Source of the DNA: Escherichia phage V18 | Sequence record: NC_041937.1 | Length of the DNA: 64,000 nt | Strand: one strand, 5' to 3' | In this document: positions 34,078-63,812 of the stretch, piece after piece | Layout of the letters: each line of letters starts with the position of its first letter | How positions within the stretch are numbered: position 1 is the stretch's first letter | The notes under the pieces: model-generated | What the model was told of the DNA's origin: nothing | The model's input: the letters and a program-made list of their open reading frames with translations, nothing else | The model's database searches: none | Program-made: the position numbers and the translations under genes

Positions 34078-34106
34078 TTGACATAACCACACGGACGTGG
34101 TATTGT
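34078..34106 (+). promoter_or_regulatory. sigma70-like promoter
   Basis: TTGACA-N17-TATTGT upstream of ORF 34138. Confidence 0.45.
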
Positions 34107-34137
34107 CACCTCATAAGATGTTCAGGAGGGTTTAACC

Positions 34138-34344
34138 ATGAAAGATTTTCTGTTGGCAATTTTGTTCATGGCGGCATGTCTGGCCTGTGGTGTAGTGTTT
34201 GCAGGTGAAACAGCGTATCTTGTCGATGTATATCGGGACAATGGTAAACGTATTTGCCTTTATGAGACAAGCCAAGGTGAGCTCTACGAGCTTGTGAAAC
34301 AAGGCGAGGCAGGTTCCTGCCCTCGCACCCATTTCTTTGAATAA
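34138..34344 (+). CDS. small secreted/membrane protein (signal peptide or lipoprotein-like)
   Basis: 68 aa; N-terminal hydrophobic segment LLAILFMAACLACGVV; preceded by sigma70-like promoter; could be lysis-associated. Confidence 0.4.
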   Translation: MKDFLLAILFMAACLACGVVFAGETAYLVDVYRDNGKRICLYETSQGELYELVKQGEAGSCPRTHFFE

Positions 34345-34353
34345 GGGGGATAC

Positions 34354-34817
34354 GTGGAAGACGGACGTTTAATGAAGTCTGAACGCAGGCTTATTGTGCA
34401 ACTGATCCCAGAAACAGCTTGGTATAATAACCTCCGAAACGCTGTGAAGGAGAGTGAGTGGGATAAGATCCGCAAGAAGTGCTATAGAGAAGCCAACTAC
34501 ACTTGTGAGGTGTGTGGCGGTAAAGGCAGCAAACACCCAGTGGAGTGTCATGAACTTTACACTTTCGAAGAGGGAGTGATCCGGCTTGTCGGACTGATAG
34601 CGTTGTGCCAGATTGTCACACATCGGTGCATCCTGGGTTAGCAAATATTCGTGGAAAGTATGCTCAGGCAGTTAATCAGTTGGCTAAGGTGAATAAGATC
34701 ACCAAAGGTATGGCAGAGGCGTATTACCGAGACTGCTTTGCAGAGTGGCGTGAGCTTAGTAAAGTTCCAGAGTGGAAGACTGACTTTTCGTGGATAGAGG
34801 GTTACCTTGATGGCTAA
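34354..34817 (+). CDS. HNH-like zinc-finger nuclease, apparent frame change near 34605-34641
   Basis: CEVCGG ... HPVECHE in first ORF; second overlapping ORF begins ...PDCHTSVHPGL (second Cys/His pair); together resemble an HNH nuclease. Confidence 0.4.
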
Positions 34818-35100
34818 GAGATCTGTAAAAGAGAAATTCGATAAGACAGCTTTTGTATTCGATACACCTCTGGACGATATCATCAGAGGTATGCAAGCCT
34901 TGTATCGGAAGGCTGAATCTGAGCAGTTGTCTGAATCAGAACTTTACTGGCTTGGTTGGTGGGAGTTAAACCTGCCTAAAGCTGAAAGTTCTTGTCTGAG
35001 AACTGTTAAAACGTGCGCCCAAGAAAACGCTGCACTTGGAATCTACCACAAAAGGAAAAGATCAACAAAAAGCTCTCCAAGAAAGACTAAAAAGTCTTGA
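34807..35100 (+). CDS. hypothetical protein
   Basis: 97 aa ORF with basic C-terminus. Confidence 0.4.
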   Translation: MMAKRSVKEKFDKTAFVFDTPLDDIIRGMQALYRKAESEQLSESELYWLGWWELNLPKAESSCLRTVKTCAQENAALGIYHKRKRSTKSSPRKTKKS

Positions 35101-35126
35101 CAAAAGTGTTATTAATCTGATATTAT
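35097..35126 (+). promoter_or_regulatory. sigma70-like promoter
   Basis: TTGACA-N18-TATTAT upstream of ORF 35201. Confidence 0.45.
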
Positions 35127-35200
35127 CGGTCAGATATCTATAAACTAGGAGAACTAGATATGCTTAAATTTTTATTGTTGAAGATAAAGATATTGTCCAG

Positions 35201-35467
35201 TTGTATGCAAACGAGAATCATAAAGGTATGATTCTAAAGAAGGCAAGCAACCTTCATGAAAACACAATTCAACCTGGTGATGTAATTAAGATCTGTGGTT
35301 ATATGATACCAGACTCCTTGATGAAAATAACCCACCACTGGGGGTCTAATCCGTTCCTTTTTGAAAAGTATTGGGATGTTGAGTCACTTATTGCAGAGAG
35401 TGATGATGCCTTCCATTGCAGCATCCAACCATCTTGCAGAATAACTAACAGGAGGGTCTTTGAGTAG
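35201..35467 (+). CDS. hypothetical protein
   Basis: 88 aa ORF downstream of promoter 35097-35126. Confidence 0.35.
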   Translation: MYANENHKGMILKKASNLHENTIQPGDVIKICGYMIPDSLMKITHHWGSNPFLFEKYWDVESLIAESDDAFHCSIQPSCRITNRRVFE

Positions 35468-36599
35468 AGAATATCCACTTATTGAGTCCATAGATTGTCT
35501 GGCTGATCTTCTTGAACCTGACGCTATAGTTTATTATGACTTCGATCAGGTTGCATATCAAGCTGCAGCAAGTTGTGAAAAAAGGACAATTGAGGTAACA
35601 CACAAAGCCTCCGGACGTAAGAAGATGTTTAAAACACGAACAGAGTTCTGGGGGCGGCAGAAGAACACCGTTGGTGGTTGGTTAAAAGCTGAGAATACCA
35701 ACCGTGAAGCTGCATGTAAAAAGGCTGGCAAGGAGTTTATTCCGTGGACACGAGAAGATTTCGATGTCTTGGATATCCAAACCCCTGATCCTGTAGAGAA
35801 CTGCTTGCACACAATTAAGTGTAAAGCCAATGCAGTCCTTAATTATCTCGGTATTCCGGAAGATCGGTGCGTGGGGGTACTTGGAGGCACAGGTAATTTC
35901 AGACTAGATCTTCCCATGCCGGAAAGATATAAAGCCAACCGTAACAATACTCTTCGACCACTGCTGCTTGGAGATGCAAGACAGTATCTCCAAAAGCAGT
36001 ATAATGCTCAAGTGATCAACGGTATCGAGGCTGACGACTGGTTAGCTATCCAGCAATTTGAAGGTTGGAACCACTACCAAAAAACAGGTAAGTTCAACAA
36101 GTTTATTATCTCTATTGATAAGGACCAAAGAACACTACCGGGGCTTGTGTTCGATCCCATGCGAAACGATAAGGGAGATTTTGTAAGGGAAACCCCTATG
36201 CTGATCGATAACGGTATGGGGAACATCTTCATGAAGCCTAATGGAGAGGTTGGTGGTTACGGAATGCTGTTCTTCGGATACCAAATGCTGTGTGGTGACT
36301 CTGCTGACAACATCAAGCCGTATCAAGGACTTATCGGTAAGGGTAAGTTCGGAGATGCCTCAGCATTCTACCTACTGTCTCAGTGCAGCACTCCAAAGGA
36401 GATGTGGGTGGCTATTATTGATCAGTACAAGAAGTGGTTCCCGAAAGGTGTTGTTAAGTATACTGACTTCAATGGTATTGATCGTAGAATTTCCGTAGGT
36501 CAATGGATGAGTATAATTTTTGACTGTTTGTATATGAAGCGAACATTCAATGATCAAACAAAACTTGTTAACGTTCTTAGAAATGTTGGAGCAATTTGA
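35460..36599 (+). CDS. 5'-3' exonuclease / flap endonuclease (FEN/RNase H-like)
   Basis: 379 aa; GIEADDWLAI and IISIDKD acidic motifs typical of phage 5'-exonucleases. Confidence 0.6.
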   Translation: MSREYPLIESIDCLADLLEPDAIVYYDFDQVAYQAAASCEKRTIEVTHKASGRKKMFKTRTEFWGRQKNTVGGWLKAENTNREAACKKAGKEFIPWTREDFDVLDIQTPDPVENCLHTIKCKANAVLNYLGIPEDRCVGVLGGTGNFRLDLPMPERYKANRNNTLRPLLLGDARQYLQKQYNAQVINGIEADDWLAIQQFEGWNHYQKTGKFNKFIISIDKDQRTLPGLVFDPMRNDKGDFVRETPMLIDNGMGNIFMKPNGEVGGYGMLFFGYQMLCGDSADNIKPYQGLIGKGKFGDASAFYLLSQCSTPKEMWVAIIDQYKKWFPKGVVKYTDFNGIDRRISVGQWMSIIFDCLYMKRTFNDQTKLVNVLRNVGAI

Positions 36600-47410: not shown

Positions 47411-47689
47411 ATGAGCTGCGAAAAATCTTTTTTCATCATCATTTACGGTAAGGATAACTGCCCACACTGTGTCAGAGCAAAAGAATTTGCAATCAGCAAA
47501 GGTCTGCCTTTTGTATATAAGACACTTGGCGATGGCTACACAAAAGAAGAGCTTATTGAGAAGTGTAGTCCAATTGTCCCCAGAACGTTGCCGCAGATCT
47601 TCTTAGAAAGCGATCTTGACAGTATCCATATAGGCGGTGCCGACGATTTCATCTCTTTTGTTAAGAATGGTTTTGGAGAGAAAAAGTGA
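47411..47689 (+). CDS. glutaredoxin/thioredoxin-like protein
   Basis: 92 aa; redox motif YGKDNCPHCVRAK (CPHC). Confidence 0.65.
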   Translation: MSCEKSFFIIIYGKDNCPHCVRAKEFAISKGLPFVYKTLGDGYTKEELIEKCSPIVPRTLPQIFLESDLDSIHIGGADDFISFVKNGFGEKK

Positions 47690-49808
47690 AAGTTGTAAAA
47701 CGGGACGGTAGAGAAGAGTTCTATAACGGAATTAAGGTGATCAAGGCGGCAGAGTCCGCCTTACTTGAGTCTGGACATACTGAAGAAGAAGCTTACCGGA
47801 TCGCCTGCGCGGTTAATGAAGTTGTTGCTAACAATCTACCAACCGACCAGTGCACGATCTCTGTAAAAAATATCCATATCCTTGTTGAAGATGCTCTTAT
47901 GGATATGGGTTTAAAATGTGCAGCCAGAGAATACATCCAGTATAGACAGACAAGAGATAATAACAGAGAGGCAGGTGGAAAACTGCTTGCAGATATTAGT
48001 GGCTTCTTGGATCGAACTTGTGATGAATTTACAAAAGAAAACGCAAATAAGCCCACTAATCATGTACACACTCATCGTGACCTGCTTGCAGGCATCCTTA
48101 GCAAACACCTTGCATCAACACAGATCCTGCCAGACCGTGTTTCAGAAGAGCACAATAAAGGCTTCATCCATGTGCATGATCTTGACTACTTGATCAGTCC
48201 GTTAACAAACTGTTGTTTGGTAAATTATCCAGATATGTTGGAAAACGGATTCAACATTGGCAACGCCCATGTCAGTAAGCCGAAGTCAATAGGGGTTGCA
48301 ACAACAATCCTTAGCCAAATCTCTAGTGCGGTAGCTAGTGCTCAATATGGTGGTCAGACTATGAGCCATATTGATCATTATCTGGCACAGTATGCTGAAG
48401 CGACCTATGAGAAGAACCTTAAATTTTGCCAGGAACATTGGTTGCCAGATGCTGAGACTGTTGCAATGCAAATGACAGATAAAGACGTGTTTGACAGCAT
48501 GCAGACGTTGCTTTATCAGATCAACACACTAACCTCGGTAAACGGTAACCCCTTTTATCACATTAAGTTTAGGTTTGGACACTTCGGTCTTTGGTAGAAT
48601 GATTACCAAAAACTACCTGAAAGTCCACAAAATGGGTCTTGGTGAAGAACGTATTACACCTGTGTTCCCTAAAGTGCTGTTCTTCCTAGAAGAGGGTGTC
48701 AACATGAACCCTGGGGATCCTAACTACGATTTGAAACGATTAGCTCTGGAATGCTGTGCAGAACGTATCTACCTGACTTCGTATCTGTACCACTAAATAG
48801 AAAAGTGACAGGCTCGACAGATGGCAAAGTAACGAGCATGGGATATGTAGAAGTTTCTTATCGAAATATAGCGACCCTGTAACAGGCGAGGAGAAATACC
48901 TTGGCAGATTTAACTTAGGCGTTGTTAGCCTTAACCTGCCAATGATTGCGGCAAAAGCTAAGACGGAAGGTGTTGATTTCTTTGCAGTTCTTGACGAATA
49001 CTTGGATCTTGCATACGAGGCTCACCTTGTAAGGGTTAATCGTCTAAAAGGAACAAAGGCGGGGCAGAACCCCATCATGTGGTGTGAAGGCGCTCTTGCT
49101 CGCCTGGATCCCGAAGAGAGTATTGATAAACTCTTCTATGACGGGTACGCTTCCATCAGTATTGGGTATATCGGTGTGTATGAAACCTGTCAGATTTTGG
49201 GTAGAGAAGGCGACAAGGCTTTAGCTCTTGGAATCCTTCAGCACATGAGAGATGCTTGTGAGCGATACAAGAAGGAAAGTAGACTAGCATTTAGCTTGTA
49301 CGGCACTCCTTCTGAGAGTCTATGCTATAAAGCTGCAACCTGTCTGGATCGTGAATATCCGGAAGTGTTGAAGCACGAGCATGAATATCTCACCAACAGT
49401 TTCCATCAGCCAGTATGGATAAATAGCTCTCCTTTTGATAAGTGGGAGTATGAGGAAGGTTTTGCTATGATCTCCTCTGGTGGCAACATCGGATACGTAG
49501 AGACACCTAACCTGAAAAACAACCTGGATGCTTTAGAGGCCCTTGTTGACTTCGGGTATAAACACATTATGTATTTTGGTATTAACCAACCTGTAGATAA
49601 ATGTCTCAAGTGTGGTTTCTCTGGTGAGTTCAGTGCAACAGCTAAAGGCTTTGTATGCCCAGAGTGTGGAAACCATGAAGAGGGAACGATCAGTGTAATT
49701 CGACGTGTGTCTGGATACCTTTCCAGTCCTAACTCCCGTCCTTACAATAAAGGTAAGCAAGCGGAAGTTATCGAGCGAGTTAAGCACTACGGAAGTTGTG
49801 GTTGCTGA
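47686..49808 (+). CDS. nrdD: anaerobic ribonucleoside-triphosphate reductase, interrupted by three frame changes
   Basis: N-terminal ATP-cone; segments resembling E. coli NrdD (ERIYPDF...KVTGS, CRSFL, RFNLGVVSLNLPMIA, glycyl-radical RVSGYL, CxxC zinc ribbon) lie in frames 1, 2, 1 and 0. Confidence 0.7.
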
Positions 49809-49871
49809 TTCTTGACAAAAGCCACAAGGATGTGGCATATTATTGACACACAGTGAGCTAGGAGGTGCAGT

Positions 49872-50983: not shown

Positions 50984-51021
50984 AAGTACTTGGCACATCT
51001 CAATCTGAAAGGAGTCCCAAC

Positions 51022-51809
51022 ATGGGTCGAGCTAAAGAAACAAAACGCATGCGTGATGAAGCTAGAGAGGCTCGCAAATCTGATCGCCTGCGTAAGGCTG
51101 CTGAGAAATTTGCTGACGAACGAGAGCACACTGCTCCAGCTCTCCGACCAATGAATAAGAAGCAGCAAAAGTATCTTGATTACCTAGGGTCGCGTAAAAT
51201 TATCATTGTAAACGGAGTGTTTGGGTCTGGTAAAACATTCATGGCATCTGCTATGCAGGTGACCTTCTGCGTAAGAATGAAATTGATAAGATCATTGTTG
51301 CACGTCCTTACGTTCAGACAGGAAAGACTTCAGGATTTAAACCTGGAAATGCAATGCAGAAACTGTGGCCCTATCTTCGAAGCATGATGGACACGATTTG
51401 TCGTCGTGTTGGCAAAGGTGCTTTTGCCGCAATGCTGGGAGACGGTCAGAACAGCCGTATCGAGATTTGTGAAGTTGAAAGCATTCGTGGTCGTAGTTTC
51501 GATGAGCGATGCTTTGTCCTGATTGACGAGGCACAGCAAACTAACCCTGAAGAAATGTTGTCAATTATCACAAGGATCTCTGATCAAGCCACCCTTGTAA
51601 TTATGGGTGATAATAGCCAACGTGACATCCCTGGTAAATCTGGCCTTGCATGGGTGACGGATTTCTTTACTCGTCATCCAGATCCTGAGGTTGGAATGAT
51701 CAGCTTTGATAGTCCAGACGATGTCGTTCGTTCTGGGTTGGGTCGTCAGATCGCACTCAATCTTATTGAGGATCGTGCAAATCATATTTGGACCCCTGTT
51801 TCCGAGTAA
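51022..51809 (+). CDS. phoH: PhoH-like ATPase, frame change near 51250
   Basis: Walker A GVFGSGKTFMA in first ORF; second frame gives KIIVARPYVQTGKTSGFKPGN ... FVLIDEAQ. Confidence 0.65.
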
Positions 51810-51853
51810 TACAGAAGGGTGGTTATTCCACCCTTAAATATCTAAAACAGTTG

Positions 51854-51882
51854 TTGACAAATAGGTAAGCTTTAGATATTAT
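51854..51882 (+). promoter_or_regulatory. sigma70-like promoter
   Basis: TGTTGACA-N17-TATTAT upstream of ORF 51911. Confidence 0.5.
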
Positions 51883-51910
51883 TATCGGACAAAACAGAGA
51901 GAAGGACAGT

Positions 51911-52222: not shown

Positions 52223-52282
52223 AGGTAAATGTGAATCAGGTTTAAATAAATAGCTTTCAACTTCCAATATTAAGGATTTCTC

Positions 52283-53329: not shown

Positions 53330-53342
53330 ACATTAATTCTAA

Positions 53343-53365
53343 AGCCCTCTTCGGAGGGCTTTTAT
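53343..53365 (+). terminator. rho-independent terminator after ClpP-like gene
   Basis: AGCCCTC-TTCG-GAGGGCT hairpin followed by TTTT. Confidence 0.55.
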
Positions 53366-53380
53366 GATCTGGAGATTTGC

Positions 53381-53914: not shown

Positions 53915-54195
53915 AGATGAGTGCTAAGGACAAATTACACCAGTTAGCGCTAAAACGTCCTGTAACGCTCCCTGACGAGCTTAACTCCATTTATGATGCG
54001 ATTGTAGGGGAGATACAAAATAAAGCGTTAGCAGGCTTTCTGGGATGCGGATTTTCGATAAATCTACCCTCGCATCTCTCAGATTACTTCCCGCACATTG
54101 TTGGAGATTTGAGAGCAGGAGGTCTGCAGGTAGATGTTGTTGGCATCTCCCCAGAGAAAAATAACACGGTTGCCTACTTGACAGTAACCTGGTAG
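53881..54195 (+). CDS. hypothetical protein
   Basis: 104 aa ORF overlapping methyltransferase 3' end. Confidence 0.35.
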   Translation: MVGTTRGRPEMKMSAKDKLHQLALKRPVTLPDELNSIYDAIVGEIQNKALAGFLGCGFSINLPSHLSDYFPHIVGDLRAGGLQVDVVGISPEKNNTVAYLTVTW

Positions 54196-54471: not shown

Positions 54472-54869
54472 AGATTGAGATCACCAAAGAAGGCAAGAAA
54501 GTGTCTGGCGACTATGCAACAGTAATTCGGGATTTAATGTTTGAAGCCACCAAGATCGGTACATCTAAAGTTGGTCAAACTGTTAGTGTGCAAAGTAATA
54601 TCGCCACAGGAGAGAAGGTATTCATTGTGGTCAAAGGGCAGGATCCTGTGGAAGGAACAGTGGGCCGAGGAGGTTACCTGTGCATTTCTGAAGAGCCTCG
54701 TATGCTAGTGGCTGACTCCGCTACTATAGGTGGGAAACGTGTGTGCGAGGCGGATGAGGTAATGATTATCCAGCCTGTTGACCCAGATGATCCAGCAACT
54801 TGGGTGGTAGGAAATGAAATCTTCTCTTTAGAAGAGTTATCCTTCCCAGCCCCGCGCTCTGTTCAGTAA
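54468..54869 (+). CDS. hypothetical protein
   Basis: 133 aa ORF, start overlaps upstream stop. Confidence 0.4.
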   Translation: MKIEITKEGKKVSGDYATVIRDLMFEATKIGTSKVGQTVSVQSNIATGEKVFIVVKGQDPVEGTVGRGGYLCISEEPRMLVADSATIGGKRVCEADEVMIIQPVDPDDPATWVVGNEIFSLEELSFPAPRSVQ

Positions 54870-54908
54870 TAATTTATCTTACCAGGGACGGTAGAAGCAG
54901 GAGGTAGC

Positions 54909-55142
54909 ATGAAAGTTAAATTTCTTACAGATTTAGGGTACCCTTCCTTGGTTGACTGTGTTGGTAAAATTGTGGAAGCAAAACGGCTATCTGCAAACGA
55001 GAATGTTGTCCTGGTTAAAGGGAAGGATTTACTAGCTGCAGGTGCAGAGTCTGGCAGGATCTCTCCTGATTATATGTATTACCTATCTTTAAGTAATCTG
55101 CCAGAGCGAGGCGGTAAAGGCCTTGAAGTTGTGGAGGAGTGA
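54909..55142 (+). CDS. small acidic protein, MKVK...DL(L/I)AAGA paralogue family member
   Basis: 77 aa; MKVKFLTD ... DLLAAGA ... LEVVEE; paralogous to 57400-57627 and 57617-57871. Confidence 0.45.
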   Translation: MKVKFLTDLGYPSLVDCVGKIVEAKRLSANENVVLVKGKDLLAAGAESGRISPDYMYYLSLSNLPERGGKGLEVVEE

Positions 55143-55238
55143 CAGGTATGCTTCTGATTAACTGGGAAGACCTCTATGGGCCTTTATGGGAAAAGAGCAT
55201 GTATTTAAAATGGTGCGTTAATTTAGGGAGGCCTTCCA

Positions 55239-55358
55239 GTGTTTCAAGCCATGTTTATTGAGATGCTATCTGGGGTATTGTTACTGGTAGCCATCTTAGG
55301 TGGTGCAGTTCTGATGTATAACTATCTTGAAAAAGGAGACAGCAATGGTAAAAAATAA
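55239..55358 (+). CDS. small membrane peptide (39 aa)
   Basis: GTG start after GGGAGG RBS; single transmembrane helix MLSGVLLLVAILGGAVLMY. Confidence 0.25.
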   Translation: MFQAMFIEMLSGVLLLVAILGGAVLMYNYLEKGDSNGKK

Positions 55359-55530
55359 ATCTTTAGAGCAGGCTGAAAACCTTCTCCACGAGCTGGTAAA
55401 GGAGTGGAAAGTTGAATACTCAGATTTTAATGCACGAGAGGGTGAAGATTATTGGCCTACGGAGCGCTCAGAGGGCGAATGGTATCAAGATTTTATAGAG
55501 TGGTTATATCAGACGTGCGATGAGGGGTGA
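55327..55530 (+). CDS. hypothetical small acidic protein
   Basis: 67 aa ORF. Confidence 0.35.
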   Translation: MKKETAMVKNKSLEQAENLLHELVKEWKVEYSDFNAREGEDYWPTERSEGEWYQDFIEWLYQTCDEG

Positions 55531-55991
55531 CGATGTTTGTTAAATATGTAAAAACGTGCCTCAACAGTCTTGGCAGAGAGCATTGGTACACCTTGCTTGA
55601 AAAAGGGGAAATTTTAACAAAATCTGGAAAGATAACTTTTATACATAGTAAAGGTAAAGACCCGTCACGACTTGTTATAGATGATTACGTTACAGGTGTG
55701 ACGTTCGAGGTCTCTGTGGAGAGGTTAATACGCAGAGCTGGCGGCCCTTATGACCGAAGAGAGTATGTTTTCGATTCCGTTACAGAGATGGGGGAGCATC
55801 CGTCTTTAATGTTCAGGATGGTAATCAGAGATATGAGGTCATCTATAGATAGGATTGTAAAGGACATTAAGGAACCTTTTAGAGTAAAAGTTAAGAAGTT
55901 TTTCGATTCTAAGATTAACATACTCGCCGTTGCACTAGGTGTAGTTCAACTTCTGTTAATTTTGCACTATTTTGAACTACTATTTAAGTAG
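55527..55991 (+). CDS. hypothetical protein with C-terminal hydrophobic segment
   Basis: 154 aa ORF; C-terminal ILAVALGVVQLLLILHYF. Confidence 0.4.
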   Translation: MTMFVKYVKTCLNSLGREHWYTLLEKGEILTKSGKITFIHSKGKDPSRLVIDDYVTGVTFEVSVERLIRRAGGPYDRREYVFDSVTEMGEHPSLMFRMVIRDMRSSIDRIVKDIKEPFRVKVKKFFDSKINILAVALGVVQLLLILHYFELLFK

Positions 55992-56053
55992 TAGTTGAGA
56001 TATGGCACAAAGGATGTGCCATAGTGAAATAAACTAAGAAAGAGGTAGAGAGA

Positions 56054-56401
56054 ATGCCAAAGATTAAAACGTTATTACTGTGGGTAACTGTTTTAGCTTT
56101 TATAGGGTACTGGACTTGGGAAACTGAATTAAAAGATATAGGATATACCAGTCTTGAGAGCAAGGCGTGCATTGGCATAACCGATGCGTTCAGGCAAAAT
56201 GCTATGGATCACGAATGTGTTGATGCAGATATAGATGAGAAACTGTCTAAGGACAAAGATTTTTACCATGGGCATGCTTTACTTGATAGTGGTGACACTG
56301 TAGAGTTCTGGTCGTGGTTTCGTGAAGATGGAACAATAAAAACAGCAGTAAAGATCTCTAACAAAGAGTTAATGCTGTTGCAGCAAAAGGAGGCTCAATG
56401 A
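56054..56401 (+). CDS. hypothetical protein with N-terminal signal/transmembrane segment
   Basis: 115 aa; N-terminus LLLWVTVLAFIGYWTW. Confidence 0.4.
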   Translation: MPKIKTLLLWVTVLAFIGYWTWETELKDIGYTSLESKACIGITDAFRQNAMDHECVDADIDEKLSKDKDFYHGHALLDSGDTVEFWSWFREDGTIKTAVKISNKELMLLQQKEAQ

Positions 56402-56685
56402 TCTGGATATCCTATGCTGATGGCACCATGCTGTATACTGCAGGTACCAGATATGAAGTTCAGGAGAACGATAAAAAATTTATCGTAAAAACATTTGACA
56501 AGGACGACAACCTTTTGCTAGAATTGACTTACAAGGTTGGAGAGGTATCCAATATCCAATTGGATTGTGGTCATAAAGATAACCCACTCAAAAAACCTGG
56601 AATAGGCAAGGCTTCAGAAGAACGTTTGTCTCGTATTGCAGAAAGCGTTTCTACACAAAAATCTAAGAAGGGGACTAGAAAATGA
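56398..56685 (+). CDS. hypothetical protein
   Basis: 95 aa ORF coupled to upstream gene. Confidence 0.4.
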   Translation: MIWISYADGTMLYTAGTRYEVQENDKKFIVKTFDKDDNLLLELTYKVGEVSNIQLDCGHKDNPLKKPGIGKASEERLSRIAESVSTQKSKKGTRK

Positions 56686-56750
56686 AAAACTTACGTTTTA
56701 ACACTGGCGCAATGGAAGAAGCAATATTCTAAACCAGGCGGGAGGGTTTT

Positions 56751-56936
56751 ATGAAGCACTATTGCCTGTCTGGTAGAATGGGTACAGATTGTGATTGGGT
56801 TTTCTTAAAACTTGTCAGCATTCGAGAGTTCATCCCAGAGGAAGAGCAAGAAAGCGAGCTGATGTCATGGATCAACCATTACGGTAACACTTTTCGGCAT
56901 GTTAAGGTAGAAGAGTTGCCAAGCGAGGCTGATTGA
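56751..56936 (+). CDS. hypothetical small protein
   Basis: 61 aa ORF. Confidence 0.35.
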   Translation: MKHYCLSGRMGTDCDWVFLKLVSIREFIPEEEQESELMSWINHYGNTFRHVKVEELPSEAD

Positions 56937-56938
56937 CT

Positions 56939-57028
56939 ATGATTGCATCAATATTAACGTTTATGGGTGGCGTGGCATTCGGATTCATTGTTTGCCTGTT
57001 TATAGTGATTATGTCTATGCGAGGCTGA
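56939..57028 (+). CDS. small membrane peptide (29 aa)
   Basis: MIASILTFMGGVAFGFIVCLFIVIMSMRG; coupled between flanking ORFs. Confidence 0.25.
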   Translation: MIASILTFMGGVAFGFIVCLFIVIMSMRG

Positions 57029-57031
57029 ATT

Positions 57032-57403
57032 ATGAAACTTTTTGAGTGGTTTAAAAAGTTTAAATATAAAGCTGTAGCCATCGTGCCGTGGTCAATTCAG
57101 TGGGTTGATGAAGGTGGTCTACCAATACCTGGTGACAAAGATACTGGGTACTGGATTATGATGGAGAACGGGTTTGGAAAGCGAAAGTATACGTGCACAA
57201 ACTCTACTCGATCTGCCACTAACTGGTCTAAATTCTACTGGGGAGCCAACGAGTGGGGAAGATACGCCACCAAATCAATGGCACTTATTGGTATAGCAGA
57301 GTACATTGCAGCCAGAGATAGGGTTGGAGACACTTATTACTATACTGCGGACGATATTCGTAACAGTGTTTACGTCCCACAACCACCTGATGGAGACCGT
57401 TGA
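57032..57403 (+). CDS. hypothetical protein
   Basis: 123 aa ORF. Confidence 0.4.
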   Translation: MKLFEWFKKFKYKAVAIVPWSIQWVDEGGLPIPGDKDTGYWIMMENGFGKRKYTCTNSTRSATNWSKFYWGANEWGRYATKSMALIGIAEYIAARDRVGDTYYYTADDIRNSVYVPQPPDGDR

Positions 57404-57627
57404 TGAAAGTTAAAGTTTTAGATTCAAGCTTCTATATTGGTCAGGAGCCCTTAGTGGGGAAAGTGTTTACTGCTGTCCCTAACGAAGATTACCCCGACCT
57501 TTTAAAAATAAAAGGGGCAGATCTTATTGCCGCTGGTGCATCTCATGAATGCTTTGACAGTCAGTGGACCTACAACTTTGCCCTAGGTGAGGATGTAGAG
57601 ATAGTGGAGGACGATCATGAAGGTTAA
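57400..57627 (+). CDS. small acidic protein, MKVK...DLIAAGA paralogue family member
   Basis: 75 aa; MKVKVLDSSFYIGQ ... GADLIAAGA ... EIVEDDHEG. Confidence 0.45.
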   Translation: MMKVKVLDSSFYIGQEPLVGKVFTAVPNEDYPDLLKIKGADLIAAGASHECFDSQWTYNFALGEDVEIVEDDHEG

Positions 57628-57871
57628 AATTCTTGATTCTAACGTCTACTTGGGACAATCCTTCCTGAAGGGAAAGGTAGTTCCTGCGGTATACTTTGAA
57701 GGGTTGCCGTGGGATGATCCTGTGCGGCAACATCACAGTTATGTAGGCCACAACGTAGTGTTTATCTTAGGATCAGACCTGATCGCTGCTGGTGCACCGG
57801 AATATTATTTCGGGGAAGAATCCTATTATGCCTTTGGGGCAGGGTCAGATGCAGATATTGTAGAGCTGTGA
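57617..57871 (+). CDS. small acidic protein, MKVK...DLIAAGA paralogue family member
   Basis: 84 aa; MKVKILDSNVYLGQ ... GSDLIAAGA ... DIVEL. Confidence 0.45.
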   Translation: MKVKILDSNVYLGQSFLKGKVVPAVYFEGLPWDDPVRQHHSYVGHNVVFILGSDLIAAGAPEYYFGEESYYAFGAGSDADIVEL

Positions 57872-57883
57872 TGGGTAACCGTT

Positions 57884-58279
57884 GTGAAAAATAAACTGTT
57901 CAAAGTTACAATGAAAATTCGCGGAGCTTGGAGCGTAAAGCAAGGGCGTATCCCAGAATTTGAGAAAGACTTCTACGTAGTCTCCACCTCGGAGGAGGCT
58001 GCATGCTGGCAGGCTGGCTATGCCTATGCAAGAACCTGGTACGAAGGATACCAGACTGGGGGCTATGACGGAGAAATTATCAGCAAGGGTGTGGAAGAAA
58101 TTAATGTGTTGACAAGTAAAAATTTTGTTATAGTGCATCCAGATTCCAGAGTGAAGCATTACTGGAATGCCAGAACAAAAACTTGGACACCGTTTGCAGA
58201 TTCTGCTACACCACTTTTAAACCAAAAAGCTCTTGACTCTGCCCCGAGCTACGGGGTTGTTGAAGAAAAGCTAGACTGA
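57884..58279 (+). CDS. hypothetical protein, paralogue of 60089-60484
   Basis: Shared C-terminal segment (V/M)(V/R)HP.S ... YW ... WTP with ORF 60089-60484. Confidence 0.4.
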   Translation: MKNKLFKVTMKIRGAWSVKQGRIPEFEKDFYVVSTSEEAACWQAGYAYARTWYEGYQTGGYDGEIISKGVEEINVLTSKNFVIVHPDSRVKHYWNARTKTWTPFADSATPLLNQKALDSAPSYGVVEEKLD

Positions 58280-58296
58280 AACAGTGAGGTGCCACT

Positions 58297-58587
58297 ATGA
58301 TGGATTTAGTTCTGAATATTGATAACGCAGGGGAGTTTAAAGACGATGGTGTAACAAGCATTGACCAACCATGCTCTGCCAAGATTGACTCAAAATGGGC
58401 CTACAAGTTTGACGGAGAGATCTTCGCAAATGATGAGAAGGTTGTAGATGCTGCAGCCATTTTGAACGCTCTAGGGTACGACCCTGTGAATTCTTTGATC
58501 AAGGATCCTGTTGAGTTTGCAGAGTATGTTCGAAAAATGGCAGATCTTGCTGTAGATATTTTAGATACTATCGATAATAAGCTGTAA
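58297..58587 (+). CDS. hypothetical acidic protein
   Basis: 96 aa ORF. Confidence 0.4.
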   Translation: MMDLVLNIDNAGEFKDDGVTSIDQPCSAKIDSKWAYKFDGEIFANDEKVVDAAAILNALGYDPVNSLIKDPVEFAEYVRKMADLAVDILDTIDNKL

Positions 58588-58593
58588 AAACTG

Positions 58594-58622
58594 TTGACAC
58601 AACGCTTCAGATTTAGTATCAT
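58594..58622 (+). promoter_or_regulatory. sigma70-like promoter upstream of HPF-like gene
   Basis: TGTTGACA-N17-TATCAT. Confidence 0.5.
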
Positions 58623-58671
58623 TGTTTTCAAAGAGAGATAGTTATTCCCTCTTCCTTAAAAGGAACACGTT

Positions 58672-58992
58672 ATGCAAATTGAAATCACTGGCAACAATGT
58701 AGAAATCACAGAAGGTATGGTATCTTTTATTTCCCGCAAAATGTCCAAGCTGGAGCGTTTACATCCCTCTGTCAACTATGCACGTGTGAGTGTAAAAGTT
58801 GAAAATGATCACCAGGAAGTTATGGCGTTCATTTTTGACAATTCTGGAAAAGAAGTTATTGCCAAAGCTAAAGGCAGTGATGCTTACGAGGCAACTGACC
58901 GTATGGTAGATGTTGCAGCACGTCAGCTGGCTAAATGCGGTGGAAAGAAAGGTAAGGGGAAAGGCAAAGTAAAGATTGACTTTGGAGAATGA
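58672..58992 (+). CDS. ribosome hibernation promoting factor / RaiA (YfiA) family protein
   Basis: MQIEITGNNVEITEGMVSFISRKMSKLERL ... YARVSVKVE ... AKAKGSDAYEATDRMVDVAARQLAK matches short HPF/RaiA pattern; own promoter and AAGGA RBS. Confidence 0.65.
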   Translation: MQIEITGNNVEITEGMVSFISRKMSKLERLHPSVNYARVSVKVENDHQEVMAFIFDNSGKEVIAKAKGSDAYEATDRMVDVAARQLAKCGGKKGKGKGKVKIDFGE

Positions 58993-59001
58993 GGTGCTAC
59001 A

Positions 59002-59103
59002 ATGGGTGTGATTAAGAAATTAGTCACAAATGTAGAGATTGCATGCTTTGAAATTATGTTTGCAATCGCAGTTGTAGTTAATGTGTTAGGTTACGGCTAT
59101 TAA
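59002..59103 (+). CDS. small membrane peptide (33 aa)
   Basis: MGVIKKLVTNVEIACFEIMFAIAVVVNVLGYGY; GAGGTG RBS. Confidence 0.25.
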   Translation: MGVIKKLVTNVEIACFEIMFAIAVVVNVLGYGY

Positions 59104-59129
59104 TATCAAATAATTGAGGAGACCTCTAA

Positions 59130-59399
59130 ATGAAAATTAAATTATTCAAAACTGAGCTGGCAGACAAAAACTGTGGACTGGTTGAAGGCATGATTGTTGA
59201 AGCACAACCAGTGGACTATATGAAGGTGGTTCGTGATGCCCTAGGTGAAGGTTTTGATCTGATGGAGCCAGCTCTGCGAGAAGATGTTATCGAGATGGCT
59301 AAAAAGCACACACCTGAAGGTTTGGTGGTGTTTGTTGCACCGGGTAACGGAGAAGAGTTGATTGTAACTCCGGATGTGTATGAGATTGTAGAGGAATAA
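59130..59399 (+). CDS. small acidic protein ending YEIVEE (paralogue family B)
   Basis: 89 aa; MKIKLFKTE ... YEIVEE; similar architecture to 60561-60821. Confidence 0.45.
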   Translation: MKIKLFKTELADKNCGLVEGMIVEAQPVDYMKVVRDALGEGFDLMEPALREDVIEMAKKHTPEGLVVFVAPGNGEELIVTPDVYEIVEE

Positions 59400-59490
59400 T
59401 CCTGCTTGGATTAGCATACTTCCTCGATAAGGAAGATTTGTAATTATTTGTGGGAAAGGAATCCCAATCTCTTACCAGAGGTGATACTAT

Positions 59491-59670
59491 ATGATTGTTT
59501 ATTTTAAAACTTCAGGTGGATACCCTGATTCTCAAAGCTTGATCGGAAAAACGTGCACAGCATACTCACCTCTTGATGAGGAGGTAAGCGATATTCTACG
59601 AAATATGTATCGGATTGACCCCCAAGAAGCTTTGATCAAAACCTTGTATTTGTCAAGGGCTCAGATATGA
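59491..59670 (+). CDS. hypothetical small protein (59 aa)
   Basis: MIVYFKTSGGYPDSQ... ORF not in track. Confidence 0.3.
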   Translation: MIVYFKTSGGYPDSQSLIGKTCTAYSPLDEEVSDILRNMYRIDPQEALIKTLYLSRAQI

Positions 59671-59757
59671 AGTCTTTGGGAGCATTCCCTGAAGCAGATG
59701 ATGATGCCGTTTATTCGTTCATGACTCCTTTTGAAGCTATGGTTGTTGGGTGATAAT

Positions 59758-59949
59758 ATGAAAGTACGCTTTATTGGTGAAACAATTCCTGTGCATCTCC
59801 GGTCTCCTGAGGATTCTGCAGATCTTGCATCTCAAAAGGCGAGAGGTTATGATAAGAAAGTAACCTCAACCGATGTAGTGCTTGAGGCTACTAGCTACCT
59901 GACCCTGCTGCATTCTTTAATCATTATGGGTACTATTTCAGCAACCTGA
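59758..59949 (+). CDS. hypothetical small protein
   Basis: Start placed at ATG 59758 (MKVRFIGETIP) within track ORF 59731-59949. Confidence 0.35.
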   Translation: MKVRFIGETIPVHLRSPEDSADLASQKARGYDKKVTSTDVVLEATSYLTLLHSLIIMGTISAT

Positions 59950-60092
59950 TGAATATCGGTGAGCTTGTATTTATTAGTGGTGGAGAAATTGTTAGCAAGC
60001 TCGGTGGCGATCCAGATGTCTTTCATGAAACCTGTCCTTTTGCATTTGTGGTAGGTTCAGATGTGGAAGTTATTGAGGAGGTGCGGTAATGG
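59949..60092 (+). CDS. hypothetical small acidic protein (47 aa)
   Basis: MNIGELVFISGGEI ... VEVIEEVR; coupled to flanking genes. Confidence 0.3.
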
Positions 60093-60484
60093 TAAGCCTA
60101 TACCGTGTCGAGTATAGCTCGGATACTGTATACAACGTAAGAAGCAAAGATCGCAGCGACAGAGTGCAAGAAATGTATGTTCTTGCCGACAGTCCGTTAT
60201 CTGCAGCGTTCAAGGCAGGGGCTCTTGCATCTCGTTGGAAATTTGAAGGTGGATCTTTCTATGAAGAAACCCTTGAAGATTCTGTTGTTATTTCTTCTGT
60301 AGAGGTTTCAGATGACTACGAAGGGAAAAAGTTCGTAATGCGGCACCCACACAGCAATATTGCGTACTACTGGGACGTTCTGAACAACGAGTGGACCCCA
60401 GATCTTCAGAAGGCTACTGTGCTAACACCGTTTTTGGCAGATAAGTTCCCACCAGAAGGTAATTTATCTGCACTGTTTCAGTAA
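60089..60484 (+). CDS. hypothetical protein, paralogue of 57884-58279
   Basis: 131 aa; shared C-terminal HP.S ... YW ... WTP segment. Confidence 0.4.
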   Translation: MVSLYRVEYSSDTVYNVRSKDRSDRVQEMYVLADSPLSAAFKAGALASRWKFEGGSFYEETLEDSVVISSVEVSDDYEGKKFVMRHPHSNIAYYWDVLNNEWTPDLQKATVLTPFLADKFPPEGNLSALFQ

Positions 60485-60502
60485 TTTTCTTGCACACAGG
60501 TG

Positions 60503-60531
60503 TTGACAACGCCAACCCTGTGTGAAATAAT
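60503..60531 (+). promoter_or_regulatory. sigma70-like promoter
   Basis: TGTTGACA-N17-AATAAT with TGTG upstream of -10. Confidence 0.4.
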
Positions 60532-60560
60532 ACCTTCATCTTAACAAGACAGGAGACCGA

Positions 60561-60821
60561 TTGATGAAGATTAAATTGAAAAACCTTGAAACGGCAGAGA
60601 TTCAGGACGGTGTTGATTTCCGTTCTAAAGATGGTGACATCTTAGAGGTAAATATTCCAACCTACGATCTGATCAAAGGTTTTGGCAACGTCCCCGAGGA
60701 AGGTATCGCAGACGTTCTTCTAATGTTAATCGTTAGTGGGACAGTGTTCTTGGGTGAAGGTGAGAACGCTATTGCAATCCCAAGCCATTTTTATGAAGTA
60801 GTTGACGAAGAGGTGCTGTAA
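60561..60821 (+). CDS. small acidic protein ending YEVVDEEVL (paralogue family B)
   Basis: 86 aa; MKIKLKNLE ... YEVVDEE; promoter 60503-60531 upstream. Confidence 0.45.
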   Translation: MMKIKLKNLETAEIQDGVDFRSKDGDILEVNIPTYDLIKGFGNVPEEGIADVLLMLIVSGTVFLGEGENAIAIPSHFYEVVDEEVL

Positions 60822-61172
60822 ATGAAAGTAGAAATTACTGGTTTTGATGTGAATGCGGTTCCGGAAGATATTTTAGCTAAACTTCCGGAAGGTTTTGGTA
60901 ACGGTGTTGTGGTGGATGCTGTTCCTCCTACCAAAGACATTCTGCTGCAGTATGGTGTAGCAGAGGAAGATGTCGATAAAGTTCTTACAATGATGGCAAT
61001 CGATCGTGTTGTCGTTGTTAAAGGTCTCGATAATTTTGAGAGTGATCCCCTGATTATTCGTGGAGATGACTACAAAATCATCGATAATGAAGGCCAAGAG
61101 TTCTATGAACCTTGTGCAGAAGATATTCTTAACTTATTACTGGAAGCAGGCACCGAAGAGGAGGACGAATAA
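60822..61172 (+). CDS. small acidic protein
   Basis: 116 aa; MKVEITGF ... acidic C-terminus EAGTEEEDE. Confidence 0.45.
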   Translation: MKVEITGFDVNAVPEDILAKLPEGFGNGVVVDAVPPTKDILLQYGVAEEDVDKVLTMMAIDRVVVVKGLDNFESDPLIIRGDDYKIIDNEGQEFYEPCAEDILNLLLEAGTEEEDE

Positions 61173-61501
61173 TGAAGATTGACCCGTTACTGAAGGCTCG
61201 TGCAGAAAAAGCGTACACCATTAAGCTGACCACCCTGGTTCCTGCTTGTCATCCGGATGTAGGTTGGCCCGAAGGTCTGGTAGAGGGGACTGTAACAGCC
61301 GCATACCTTCCTAACATCAAATACCTTATGGAAATCTTAGAGATGGATGAGGAAACTGCAGAACAGTTCCAGTTGGATATGAAACAAAGTGGGACTTTGG
61401 TTATTCACGGGTGGTATAATACTAAAGATGCAGAAGACCCTCTGGTAACTTCTAATCTGGCATATGAAATCTTAGGGCCTTTGAACCTGGGGGAAGACTA
61501 A
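61172..61501 (+). CDS. small acidic protein
   Basis: 109 aa; ends AYEILGPLNLGED. Confidence 0.45.
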   Translation: MKIDPLLKARAEKAYTIKLTTLVPACHPDVGWPEGLVEGTVTAAYLPNIKYLMEILEMDEETAEQFQLDMKQSGTLVIHGWYNTKDAEDPLVTSNLAYEILGPLNLGED

Positions 61502-61788
61502 TGAAAGATCTGGTTAAGATTAAGATTAAAGATACCAATGGAGAACTCAGCCATTTTGGAATTAATGATGGTGACGAGCTGATCGCACACTTGCCTACCA
61601 AGGAAGTTGTAAGCAAAGCGGTTGCCGGAGAAGAAGCTGCAATGCAGGCTGCAGGTGTGGATGAAAACTATGTAGCCATGTGCATGTGCCGAGATCAGGT
61701 TGTTCTGTATAAAGCGTATCGACCAAACGGAGCCACGGAGTGGCTTGTATTCCGACCTGAAGGATATGAAATCTTAGAGGCACTATGA
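61501..61788 (+). CDS. small acidic protein
   Basis: 95 aa; ends EGYEILEAL. Confidence 0.45.
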   Translation: MKDLVKIKIKDTNGELSHFGINDGDELIAHLPTKEVVSKAVAGEEAAMQAAGVDENYVAMCMCRDQVVLYKAYRPNGATEWLVFRPEGYEILEAL

Positions 61789-61877
61789 TAAATCTTGCCA
61801 AGGTTGCAATGGTCCTGCTAATTATTTGCTGGTCAGTAACCTTAACACTGTGTCTTGTATTTCAGTAAGGTGCTTAT

Positions 61878-62075
61878 ATGAACATCCTGATGTGGGTTGT
61901 AGCAGTGGCGTTTGTTGCATGTTTTTGCTGCTGGGTTGCGGTGAGGATTTCTGTAGCTACCTTCGGAAGTTGGGGTTCTCAGAGTGGGATATTAATATCC
62001 TTTCTTTTCGCAATGAAACAATCTCAGCCGCCCTGCTCTGTAAGAAATTCAAGTGGGAACCTTGTGAGGTCATGA
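61878..62075 (+). CDS. small membrane protein (boundaries uncertain)
   Basis: N-terminal helix MNILMWVVAVAFVACFCCWVAV; overlapping ORF 61826-62140 has a plausible C-terminal half in another frame. Confidence 0.3.
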   Translation: MNILMWVVAVAFVACFCCWVAVRISVATFGSWGSQSGILISFLFAMKQSQPPCSVRNSSGNLVRS

Positions 62076-62168
62076 ACTATCTAAGAACGGGGGATATCCC
62101 TGAAAGATTTAAAAAAGTTCTTGACGGCAAGGATAAATGATAGTATAGTGACTAACAAGAGGTGAGGA

Positions 62169-62309
62169 ATGACTGATTTTACTGAAGCTTTGATGATGGC
62201 CTTGTCTGTTTTAGCGCTATCGGTATGTTTTGGGGCGTTATTCACATCTCTGGTTAAAGTTTTACATACAGTATTATTACCCAAGGAGCGCAGTAATGAC
62301 GAAGATTGA
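62169..62309 (+). CDS. small membrane protein (46 aa)
   Basis: MTDFTEALMMALSVLALSVCFGALFTSLVKVL...; GAGGTGAGGA RBS. Confidence 0.25.
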   Translation: MTDFTEALMMALSVLALSVCFGALFTSLVKVLHTVLLPKERSNDED

Positions 62310-62547
62310 CTTGAATGCTGGCGACCATGTTGTTGTCAAATGCATCGGAGATTATCTTGGATTCACAATCGGCAATACTTACGAGGCGGTAGTGTCGAAG
62401 GTTTATCATGATAAAGTCCTCAGTCTTGTATTTGACTGCGATGATGATGGGGATGACCGATACGTCTGTGAGGTGCTGGCACGAGACGATAGTGAAGACC
62501 AGAAATTCCTGGTTATTGAACTGAACGGTATTTTTGTAGAACGTTAA
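62296..62547 (+). CDS. hypothetical small protein
   Basis: Start placed at ATG 62296 (MTKIDLNAGDHVVV) with AAGGAG RBS. Confidence 0.45.
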   Translation: MTKIDLNAGDHVVVKCIGDYLGFTIGNTYEAVVSKVYHDKVLSLVFDCDDDGDDRYVCEVLARDDSEDQKFLVIELNGIFVER

Positions 62548-62575
62548 TTTAAAACAACATAAGGAGACTCTTACT

Positions 62576-62881
62576 ATGGCTAAATCTAAAGTTGAACTGT
62601 TCACCTCTCTTCCTTCTGACACTGCAGAACGTGATCGCCTTCGCAAAACAATCGAAGAACTGGTGGAACTCCAGCTTCAGATTAAAGACCTGAAAGATGC
62701 CATCAAGGATATCATTCTCGTTGAGAAGCAGGATCATCTATATTCTCCTAAATTCATCAAATCTCTGGTGGCTACAGAGTTTGATATCCGCTACGAAGCT
62801 GAAAAACGTCGCGCTAAGATTGAAGAAGAGGTTGAGCACATGTCTGAGGCAGACATTCTGTTCAAACGCTCTGTAGAATAA
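62576..62881 (+). CDS. hypothetical coiled-coil protein
   Basis: 101 aa helical protein; AAGGAGA RBS; terminator hairpin follows. Confidence 0.45.
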   Translation: MAKSKVELFTSLPSDTAERDRLRKTIEELVELQLQIKDLKDAIKDIILVEKQDHLYSPKFIKSLVATEFDIRYEAEKRRAKIEEEVEHMSEADILFKRSVE

Positions 62882-62889
62882 TGACAAAA

Positions 62890-62914
62890 AGAGGGGCCCA
62901 AGCCCCTCTTTTTA
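62890..62914 (+). terminator. rho-independent terminator
   Basis: AGAGGGGC-CCAA-GCCCCTCT hairpin followed by TTTTT. Confidence 0.55.
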
Positions 62915-62936
62915 CTATCTATGAAGGAGATTTGAG

Positions 62937-63263
62937 ATGGGTATACCGATCACTGTAAAAGAATTGAATGAACGTGATGCAGGCGGTCTATGGCCTGCAC
63001 GAAAAATACGCTGCGTCTATATGAAAGAGAATCTTGAACATCTTGATCAACAGATAAAGGTCGGCGATATTTTCGAGGTCTTCTATTCCAATCGGCGCAA
63101 CTGGGAAACCATTCAGCCTTCTGGTTTTGTTCTTGCCAAACTTGACACTGGAGAAGTGATTATCCCTGGGTTGGATATTGTCTTCGAAATTATCCAGGAG
63201 TGGGATCCGGATAAGATTAGATACGAAGAACTATTCGGTAAAGGTATTATCAAACCTGTGTGA
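62937..63263 (+). CDS. hypothetical protein
   Basis: 108 aa ORF with AAGGAGA RBS after terminator. Confidence 0.45.
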   Translation: MGIPITVKELNERDAGGLWPARKIRCVYMKENLEHLDQQIKVGDIFEVFYSNRRNWETIQPSGFVLAKLDTGEVIIPGLDIVFEIIQEWDPDKIRYEELFGKGIIKPV

Positions 63264-63655
63264 GGTGGATTATGTCTACAAAGGCGGCTAAATACTCTTA
63301 CATGCCATCAACCTCTGCAGAGGTAGACTTTAGTTTCGATGTGTTTCCACTGTTTGAGGTGGTTCTGGCATACCCAACAATACTATCTACTCCTGAATCA
63401 CTTGTGCCTGTTAAGTTGCAGAACGCTATGCATTCTATGCACTACAACAATAAATGTAGGCACAGATGGTGTCAAGACGAGGAAAAAGATTTGGATAGTT
63501 TGAGGGATTTTGACAGTCACCTTTTGACACCTTTCAGCTACTCCAACCTTGATAAGCCTCATGGGTATAGCAAAATATCAAATTTAAGACACCTAGGACG
63601 CTCTGTGGCGTCCTTTTCTTTATCTGGTGCACGATTGCATACCTTGGACAGATAA
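63260..63655 (+). CDS. hypothetical protein
   Basis: 131 aa ORF coupled to upstream gene. Confidence 0.4.
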   Translation: MRWIMSTKAAKYSYMPSTSAEVDFSFDVFPLFEVVLAYPTILSTPESLVPVKLQNAMHSMHYNNKCRHRWCQDEEKDLDSLRDFDSHLLTPFSYSNLDKPHGYSKISNLRHLGRSVASFSLSGARLHTLDR

Positions 63656-63783
63656 TCCCGTTACAGAGCGTTTAAGAGCTTCCTACAAACAAATCTCTCT
63701 TTCGAGCGTAGCGAGAACGCACGTCCGTTTTGACCCAAATCACCATACGCTCGGATTTTAACCAAACCCTCGCGGCGTTTCTG

Positions 63784-63812
63784 TTGACACATTACCGCTA
63801 CCGTGATAGTAT
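63784..63812 (+). promoter_or_regulatory. sigma70-like promoter
   Basis: TGTTGACA-N17-TAGTAT upstream of small membrane ORF. Confidence 0.5.

Follow-up and report, generated by a model that had tools for sequence, protein, structure and literature searches.

What promoters serve the rightward arm of an rV5-like coliphage, and do they bear a signature of their own? The question arises from a stretch of 64,000 nucleotides of Escherichia phage V18 (sequence record NC_041937.1), the whole of which we call the window, where a first-pass annotation had placed at least nine rightward promoters between positions 34078 and 63812. It described them as near-consensus sites of the host RNA polymerase, used early and organized in short units closed by hairpin terminators, most of them with TG or CTG directly before the -35 hexamer as a possible phage-specific mark. 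The window belongs to a Vequintavirus: megablast aligns it at 95-99% identity with over 100 records of Escherichia phages, and direct blastn alignment of its 24.5-64 kb part with rV5 (DQ832317) gives 93.7-97.1% identity across segments, that is, ~3-6% divergence, to which a few indels must be added. The sign of the GC skew switches at ~28.9 kb of the window, with leftward genes (structural genes and those of transfer RNAs, tRNAs) before that point and rightward genes after it. This rightward arm is the unit of open reading frames (ORFs) 82-163 of rV5, which comprises ligase, lysozyme, exonuclease, thyA, nrdAB, nrdDG, phoH, clpP and many small ORFs. To judge from their sequence, the nine sites are very probably ordinary sigma70-type promoters of the phage.

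Predicted host-type promoters in the rightward arm

Inspection of the sequence retrieved all nine sites at the positions proposed (Table 1). Their -35 hexamer is TTGACA in eight cases and TTGACT in one, and the spacer has 17 nt at six sites and 18 nt at three, which agrees with the near-consensus hexamers and the spacing announced for them. The -10 hexamers match the consensus at four to six of the six positions and always keep A2 and T6, in a form that resembles TAnnnT (CATATT and AATAAT also belong to the set), and five of the nine are preceded by TGn. All are intergenic and oriented as the genes are. According to a heuristic scan, eight of them are followed within 18-49 nt by a Shine-Dalgarno sequence and a start codon; for 35097 the only start that the scan proposed is ~100 nt away, while the sequence and the ORF93 of rV5 point to a nearer one, ~30 nt downstream.

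It could be argued that such matches are look-alikes, due to composition or chance and devoid of promoter function. Loose matches (at least 9/12) are indeed common in AT-rich DNA, with 58 where 44 would be expected, and 49 where 40 would, and several good ones are intragenic (33363, 56495). A more stringent count, made between 28.9 and 64 kb, required 5/6 or better in the -35 hexamer and, over both hexamers, either 11/12 or 10/12 or better, and was compared with 300 dinucleotide shuffles. At the higher threshold there are eight sites on the + strand and none on the - strand, against 0.42 +/- 0.62 in the shuffles (maximum 3), a ~19-fold excess that is confined to the coding strand; at the lower one there are 23 on the + strand and 6 on the - strand, against 4.1 +/- 2.1. 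Furthermore, the sites are concentrated in the 5% of the sequence that is intergenic: in the right arm of rV5 this fraction is 5.1% (1,915 nt, from the rV5 coding sequence table), and, of the 23 gaps in that arm that measure 35 nt or more, 8 are occupied by a site that matches at 10/12 or better.

Comparison with relatives adds to this picture. When the sites are aligned with six Vequintavirus genomes (rV5, Aya, A135, D1, A13b and one IMG/VR contig), the proportion of variable columns is 1/60 in the -35 hexamer and 6/60 in the -10 hexamer, against 61/173 in the spacer, 72/200 in the next 20 nt downstream and 47/280 in the upstream flank. The difference between the -35 hexamer and the spacer is highly significant (Fisher p = 1.4e-8), as is that between both hexamers and the spacer with the downstream sequence (p = 8e-12). 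Near-constant hexamers on either side of a drifting spacer are the mark of purifying selection on a pair of elements set at constant spacing, as a sigma70 promoter requires. The spacer of 35097 illustrates the point, being heavily substituted and almost rewritten in three genomes (L007-L009) with both hexamers intact. Likewise, the hexamers of 34078 are identical in the relatives and its upstream flank is variable, and the spacer of 50462 varies; at 58594 the spacer varies as well, and the -10 hexamer reads TATTAT in L008 and L010. With hexamers kept while spacers and leaders diverge, added to the excess on the coding strand and to the intergenic bias, a chance origin of the set becomes hardly credible. 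Beyond the genus, the promoter of the thyA/ORF107 junction (the position of 43196) is also found in Seunavirus (SSE121, EspYZU15) and in Certrevirus (CR3), and a search of IMG/VR for wider relatives with ClpP returned one close locus only.

Most of these promoters had already been proposed in rV5. Its GenBank record (DQ832317) carries P90, P93, P106, P118, P121, P144 and P150 as 'Sigma70-type promoter' features, and Table S4 of Kropinski et al. (2013; Virol J 10:76, PMC3606486) lists the same set with P105, P156 and P162, as well as the terminators t099, t109, t122 and t158. Eight of the nine sites coincide by position and sequence with these promoters (P90, P93, P106/P107, P118, P121, P144, P150 and P162) and are thus published predictions; the candidate at 49812 alone is new, its sequence being present, unannotated, in rV5 and in L007, and missing from Table S4. 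We take the conserved hexamers and their drifting spacers as comparative evidence that the predictions made in 2013 for rV5 are probably functional. Beyond annotation the significance is small: an rV5-like phage would drive an arm devoted to nucleotide metabolism and accessory functions with many near-consensus host promoters, and the sites may be used as a list for the mapping of 5' ends, or as what should be strong and compact promoter parts.

Proposed mode, timing and boundaries of transcription

We may picture the process as follows. After entry of the DNA, the unmodified host RNA polymerase carrying sigma70 (E-sigma70) would bind the near-consensus hexamers, with the extended -10 TGn at several sites, and would initiate a few bases past the -10 hexamer. 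Transcription would then proceed into the co-directional arm, through the genes of exonuclease, thymidylate synthase, NrdAB, NrdDG, PhoH and ClpP and through the small ORFs. At least 10-13 promoters would thus share a single same-strand array of 35 kb with about five good intrinsic terminators. Since promoters are many and terminators few, the sites would serve mainly as "boosters", at which transcription is initiated anew within the array so that its pre-late level stays high along the arm; they do not look like the heads of short operons well separated from one another.

This bears on the short units, bounded by hairpin terminators, that had been proposed at the outset. Some terminators do exist, and to this extent the proposal holds, but only about five are clear in the 35-kb arm, at 39278-39297, 46287-46300, 53343-53360, 62890-62909 and 63595-63614, and they rarely adjoin promoters, the weak one at 43168-43184 being alone in abutting a claimed promoter. 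The hairpin that precedes 51854, AAGGGTGGttattCCACCCTT, has no U-run, and the one at 49821-49836, which a scan had called terminator-like, has a weak AT-rich tail and falls within the spacer of 49812. Rather than a succession of short, separate units, we would see in the arm a single long array of co-directional genes, with promoters scattered through it and few terminators.

As for timing, an early or middle use of the promoters of the rightward arm is plausible in view of the genes that they precede, which belong to nucleotide metabolism or specify small accessory proteins. This would fit their scarcity among the structural genes: in that arm (- strand, 1-24 kb) there is only about one such site, and the late-like motif TGGTAAAATA (described in PMC3606486) is found instead. 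This motif, which resembles that of T4 late promoters and is the 'late' motif of rV5, has 22 matches with at most one mismatch against 5.7 expected, and exact copies stand at 13226-13235 and 16746-16755 on the - strand, which is the coding one there. The first of these also provides the -10 hexamer of a sigma70-like site at 13255, the P051 of rV5.

Some of this layout is familiar from T4, whose sigma70-dependent early promoters are preceded by A-rich sequence, in many cases include an extended -10, and drive small early ORFs and genes of nucleotide metabolism. Here too we find many closely spaced promoters of the host polymerase type, with A-rich upstream tracts at 35097, 51854, 58594 and 62121, and TGn at some sites. 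The -35 consensus of the T4 early promoters is GTTTAC-like, unlike that of the sites in the window. In T4 the switch between promoter classes involves AsiA and MotA, and gp55 and gp33. No homologues of the T4 late factors gp45, gp33 and gp55 are present in rV5 (PMC3606486).

Several observations weigh against the interpretation of the sites as early host-type promoters. The -10 hexamer of 49812 is poor (CATATT) and its spacer palindromic, and 34078 and 63784 reach 10/12 only. The relatives used in the alignment are close (~92-98% identical) and share their ancestry, so that variable columns do not count as independent events. Our literature search found no transcriptome, start-site or timing study for Vequintavirus, and function and timing are predictions. 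Finally, the authors of the rV5 study saw promoters of this type spread over the genome (PMC3606486), and their use may perhaps not be strictly early.

This last observation leads to another way to understand the sites, as functional sigma70 promoters that are not specific for early transcription and remain active throughout infection, or mainly in its middle part, as internal boosters, until a phage anti-sigma factor (the Srd-like gp11 of rV5) or the shut-off of the host intervenes. The same authors proposed gp11 as a possible switch (PMC3606486), the genes downstream (nrd, thyA, exonuclease and clpP among them) have typical delayed-early or middle functions, and few terminators separate the units. 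Such a schedule is possible, though less likely than not; it differs from the early use of host-type promoters in timing only, and the present evidence does not separate early from middle.

The bases before the -35 hexamer

Of the TG or CTG that had been noticed before most -35 hexamers, only the dinucleotide stands. TG is found at six of the nine sites, CTG at two (58594 and 63784). Within the window, TG precedes 6 of the 12 copies of TTGACA that are intergenic and co-oriented with the genes, against 10 of the 66 others (Fisher p = 0.013), and the word TGTTGACA occurs 16 times against 3.8 +/- 2.0 expected, an excess due in part to that of TTGACA itself. Over the whole rV5 genome, 11 of the 33 promoters that have been published carry TG before the -35 hexamer, for a dinucleotide background of 7.2%; once TTGAC[AT] is given, it is found in rV5 at 35% of promoters versus 17% elsewhere (p = 0.025). 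Position -36 has G in 17 of 31 rV5 promoters and T in a single one, while T occupies it in 49 of 227 cases elsewhere. The text of the rV5 article and its Table S4 (PMC3606486) do not comment on this flank, and as to the promoters of Escherichia coli itself, the text of Shultzaberger et al. is silent about what surrounds the -35 hexamer.

Should we then see in (C)TG a functional extension of the -35 element that sets apart a phage-specific or temporal class of promoters, its reader being region 4 of sigma70, the carboxy-terminal domain of the alpha subunit (alpha-CTD) or some factor of the phage? The presence of TG at six of nine sites would hardly be expected from the dinucleotide background (p = 1e-5) nor from the 17% of other TTGAC[AT] sites (p = 1.3e-3), and both its share among rV5 promoters and the near lack of T at -36 go in the same direction. 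Within rV5 it is somewhat commoner among the promoters of ORF82-163, with 6/10, than in the remainder, with 5/23 (p = 0.049), and a consensus that begins AAAA(N3-4)TGTTGAC has been published for Certrevirus. The effect is, however, about two-fold and by no means obligatory, as P90, P93, P156 and 49812 do without TG. Moreover, the two positions are as variable in the relatives as the neutral flank (6/20 columns against 47/280, p = 0.14), far above the -35 hexamer (1/60, p = 7.6e-4). When the six promoters with TG are taken alone, one column out of 12 varies, in an underpowered test; this is at P118, where the TG of the window is replaced by CG in rV5 and in L010. The syntenic arm of Seunavirus, where 6-7 promoter-like sites between genes were examined, shows TG at not one of them, and the idea that it marks the rightward arm, marginal by its p value, finds no support there. 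In the early region of CR3 it precedes ~5 of 20 promoters, GC being equally common there (6/20).

The flank is also at home outside this group of phages. The lambda promoters PL and PR, which with trp/Ptrc count among the classical strong sigma70 promoters of E. coli and its phages, carry TGTTGACA and TGTTGACT, respectively, and Ptrc carries CTGTTGACA, so that the same TGTTGAC(A/T) is joined in all of them, as in the window, to near-consensus hexamers. The spacing of lambda PL, lambda PR and Ptrc is 17 nt. These promoters differ from ours in having been characterized by experiment, and the lambda flank is part of repressor operators, whereas the promoters of the window are known from their sequence alone. 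Neither the conservation of a hexamer nor specificity for a group of phages, as would be expected of an extended -35 module, is thus observed, and a functional (C)TG element that would define a class of promoters appears very unlikely. The phage-specific signature reduces to a roughly two-fold tendency, without detectable constraint, that lambda and Ptrc share and that has been published for Certrevirus; T(-37)G(-36) would be a mild sequence preference, with G favoured and T avoided at -36, a weak tendency with no separate recognition element.

The case of Certrevirus, a sister genus in the same subfamily Vequintavirinae, deserves closer attention. Its putative early promoter, AAAA(N3-4)TGTTGAC(N17-19)TATAAT (Buttimer et al., 2020, PMC7344957), has a sigma70-like architecture that includes TG before TTGAC, and was proposed for early or middle genes, near those of nucleotide metabolism (PMC7344957). 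One might then surmise that TG, or more generally 'G, not T' at -36, does extend the -35 element in function and is common to the pre-late promoters of Vequintavirus and Certrevirus, where it might raise the affinity of E-sigma70 or be read by a phage factor that tells apart a temporal class of the rightward arm; we consider this scarcely probable. The TGTTGAC core is found at six of the nine sites of the window (not at 34078, 35097 and 49812) and at ~5 of 20 of CR3's own early promoters. An AAAA tract 3-4 nt before it exists at 51854 (AAAAcagtTGTTGACA) only, 58594 having AAAAA at a distance of 2 nt and the other sites none. The early promoters of CR3 mostly combine TTGACG and (C/T)ATAAT with GC-rich palindromic spacers, features that most promoters of the window lack.

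The Cronobacter phage CR3 (L013) is worth a look for itself: between 80.9 and 92 kb, on the + strand, it has ~20 dense early promoters that join TTGAC(G/A) to (C/T)ATAAT, with GC-rich palindromes in their spacers (e.g. CCGGGAcggtTCCCGG) and AAAA tracts upstream. Spacer palindromes of this kind are found in the window only at 49812 and at a - strand site, 27872 (GCGGGGAgtaaTCCCTGC).

Individual sites and their surroundings

Table 1. Predicted promoters, terminators and leader hairpin of the rightward arm (window positions; promoters as -35 region, spacer length in nt and -10 hexamer, with the -35 hexamer in brackets where needed)
Feature	Position	Strand	Sequence	Remarks
Promoter = rV5 P90	34078..34106	+	TTGACA-17-TATTGT	TGn before -10; GG before -35
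Promoter = rV5 P93	35097..35126	+	TTGACA-18-TATTAT	TC before -35
rV5 P105 equivalent (weaker call)	41926..41954	+	TGTTGACT-17-TATAAA	End of ORF104 equivalent; absent from first-pass list
Promoter = rV5 P106 (GenBank) / P107 (Table S4)	43196..43224	+	TGTTGACT-17-TATAAT (TTGACT)	TG before -35
Weaker candidate promoter	49812..49841	+	TTGACA-18-CATATT	TGn before -10; TC before -35
Promoter = rV5 P118	50462..50491	+	TGTTGACA-18-TATAAT	12/12; TG before -35
Promoter = rV5 P121	51854..51882	+	AAAAcagtTGTTGACA-17-TATTAT (TTGACA)	TG before -35; upstream of ORF121, clpP
Promoter = rV5 P144	58594..58622	+	CTGTTGACA-17-TATCAT (TTGACA)	CTG before -35
Promoter = rV5 P150	60503..60531	+	GTGTTGACA-17-AATAAT (TTGACA)	TGn before -10; TG before -35
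Promoter = rV5 P156	62121..62149	+	TTGACG-17-TATAGT	TC before -35; absent from first-pass list
Promoter = rV5 P162	63784..63812	+	CTGTTGACA-17-TAGTAT (TTGACA)	TGn before -10; CTG before -35
Likely terminator	31655-31672	+		
Intrinsic terminator = rV5 t099	39278..39297	+	(A)GGGAGGCttgcGCCTCCC(T) then TTTTCCTTTT	
Weak terminator-like hairpin	43168..43184	+	CCTATCacagcGATAGG then taacTTTTgtg	Directly upstream of 43196 promoter
5' leader hairpin	43227..43249	+	TGGCTCAC-tttgt-tAGTGAGCCA	Directly after 43196 -10; free energy (dG) -11.2, z -2.1
Intrinsic terminator = rV5 t109	46287..46300	+	GGGGCttcgGCCCC then ATTTT	After nrdA
Intrinsic terminator = rV5 t122	53343..53360	+	AGCCCTCttcgGAGGGCT then TTTAT	After clpP
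Intrinsic terminator = rV5 t158	62890..62909	+	AGAGGGGCccaaGCCCCTCT then TTTT	
Terminator-like hairpin	63595..63614	+	AGGACGCTctgtGGCGTCCT then TTTCTTT	170 nt upstream of 63784 promoter

The arm holds rightward sites besides the nine. The equivalent of P105 at 41926 is a weaker call, the final T of its -10 hexamer being missing, and further weak sites are found at 54178, 56916 and 58976. Two matches of 11/12 with TGn before the -10, at 33363-33390 and 56495-56524 on the + strand, lie within coding sequence: the former in the ligase gene, 230 nt before that of lysozyme, the latter in the equivalent of ORF135. They could be internal promoters; conservation is uninformative there because the sequence is coding. 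At 28887-28917 (+), the word GTGTTGACA lies back-to-back with the leftward P081, ~40 nt upstream of ORF82, the RNA ligase gene that opens the rightward series, and might be the divergent promoter that the authors of the rV5 study expected and did not find. As the missing promoter of ORF82, this copy of TGTTGACA is nonetheless unconvincing, its best -10 hexamer being CAGGAT, ~11 nt from the start codon.

Some sites have peculiarities of their own. The spacer of 49812 contains the palindrome GCCACAAGGATGTGGC. At 60503 the -35 hexamer is bracketed by an inverted repeat, CACACAGG-N16-CCTGTGTG (60493-60524), with perfect 8-bp arms that six relatives keep intact although the bases around them vary; it could be an operator or form an RNA hairpin. 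It is unique in the window, and we rejected it as a recurring operator on this ground. We also considered 35097, 50462 and 51854 as a sub-family sharing TTGACAAA...TTTAGATA...TATTATCG, and discarded it since these spacer words are not kept in relatives: the spacer of P118 differs in rV5 and that of P93 is rewritten in L007-L009.

The promoter at 43196, upstream of ORF107, ORF108 and the nrdAB genes, is followed by a hairpin (43227-43249) that we read as part of the 5' leader and not as a terminator, because it is located after the promoter. Leader hairpins are not a general feature of the arm, as they are significant only at 43196 and at the weak site 58976. A GC-rich hairpin right after the thyA/ORF107 promoter is also seen in L005 (~19190-19215), in L006 (~19200-19225) and in L012 (- strand, downstream of 21898). 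The sequences of these hairpins are unrelated between Vequintavirus, Seunavirus and Certrevirus; it is therefore structure, not sequence, that appears to be conserved in this leader. The same arrangement of promoter then leader hairpin recurs at the leftward early promoters P168, P174, P185, P192 and P194 of rV5.

Two further points concern the genes of the window. A search against Rfam retrieved three tRNAs and nothing else; they form the cluster at 24620-24942 (-), in which only the genes for Met, Thr and Arg were detected. The corresponding cluster of rV5 is annotated with six, so that the cluster is shorter in V18. In the rightward arm, nrdD (47686-49808) and phoH (51022-51809) show frameshifting indels with respect to rV5, at ~48545, 48771, 48843 and 51251, and appear as split ORFs, which may be real pseudogenes, split genes or assembly errors; nrdD is annotated in two pieces in several relatives too.

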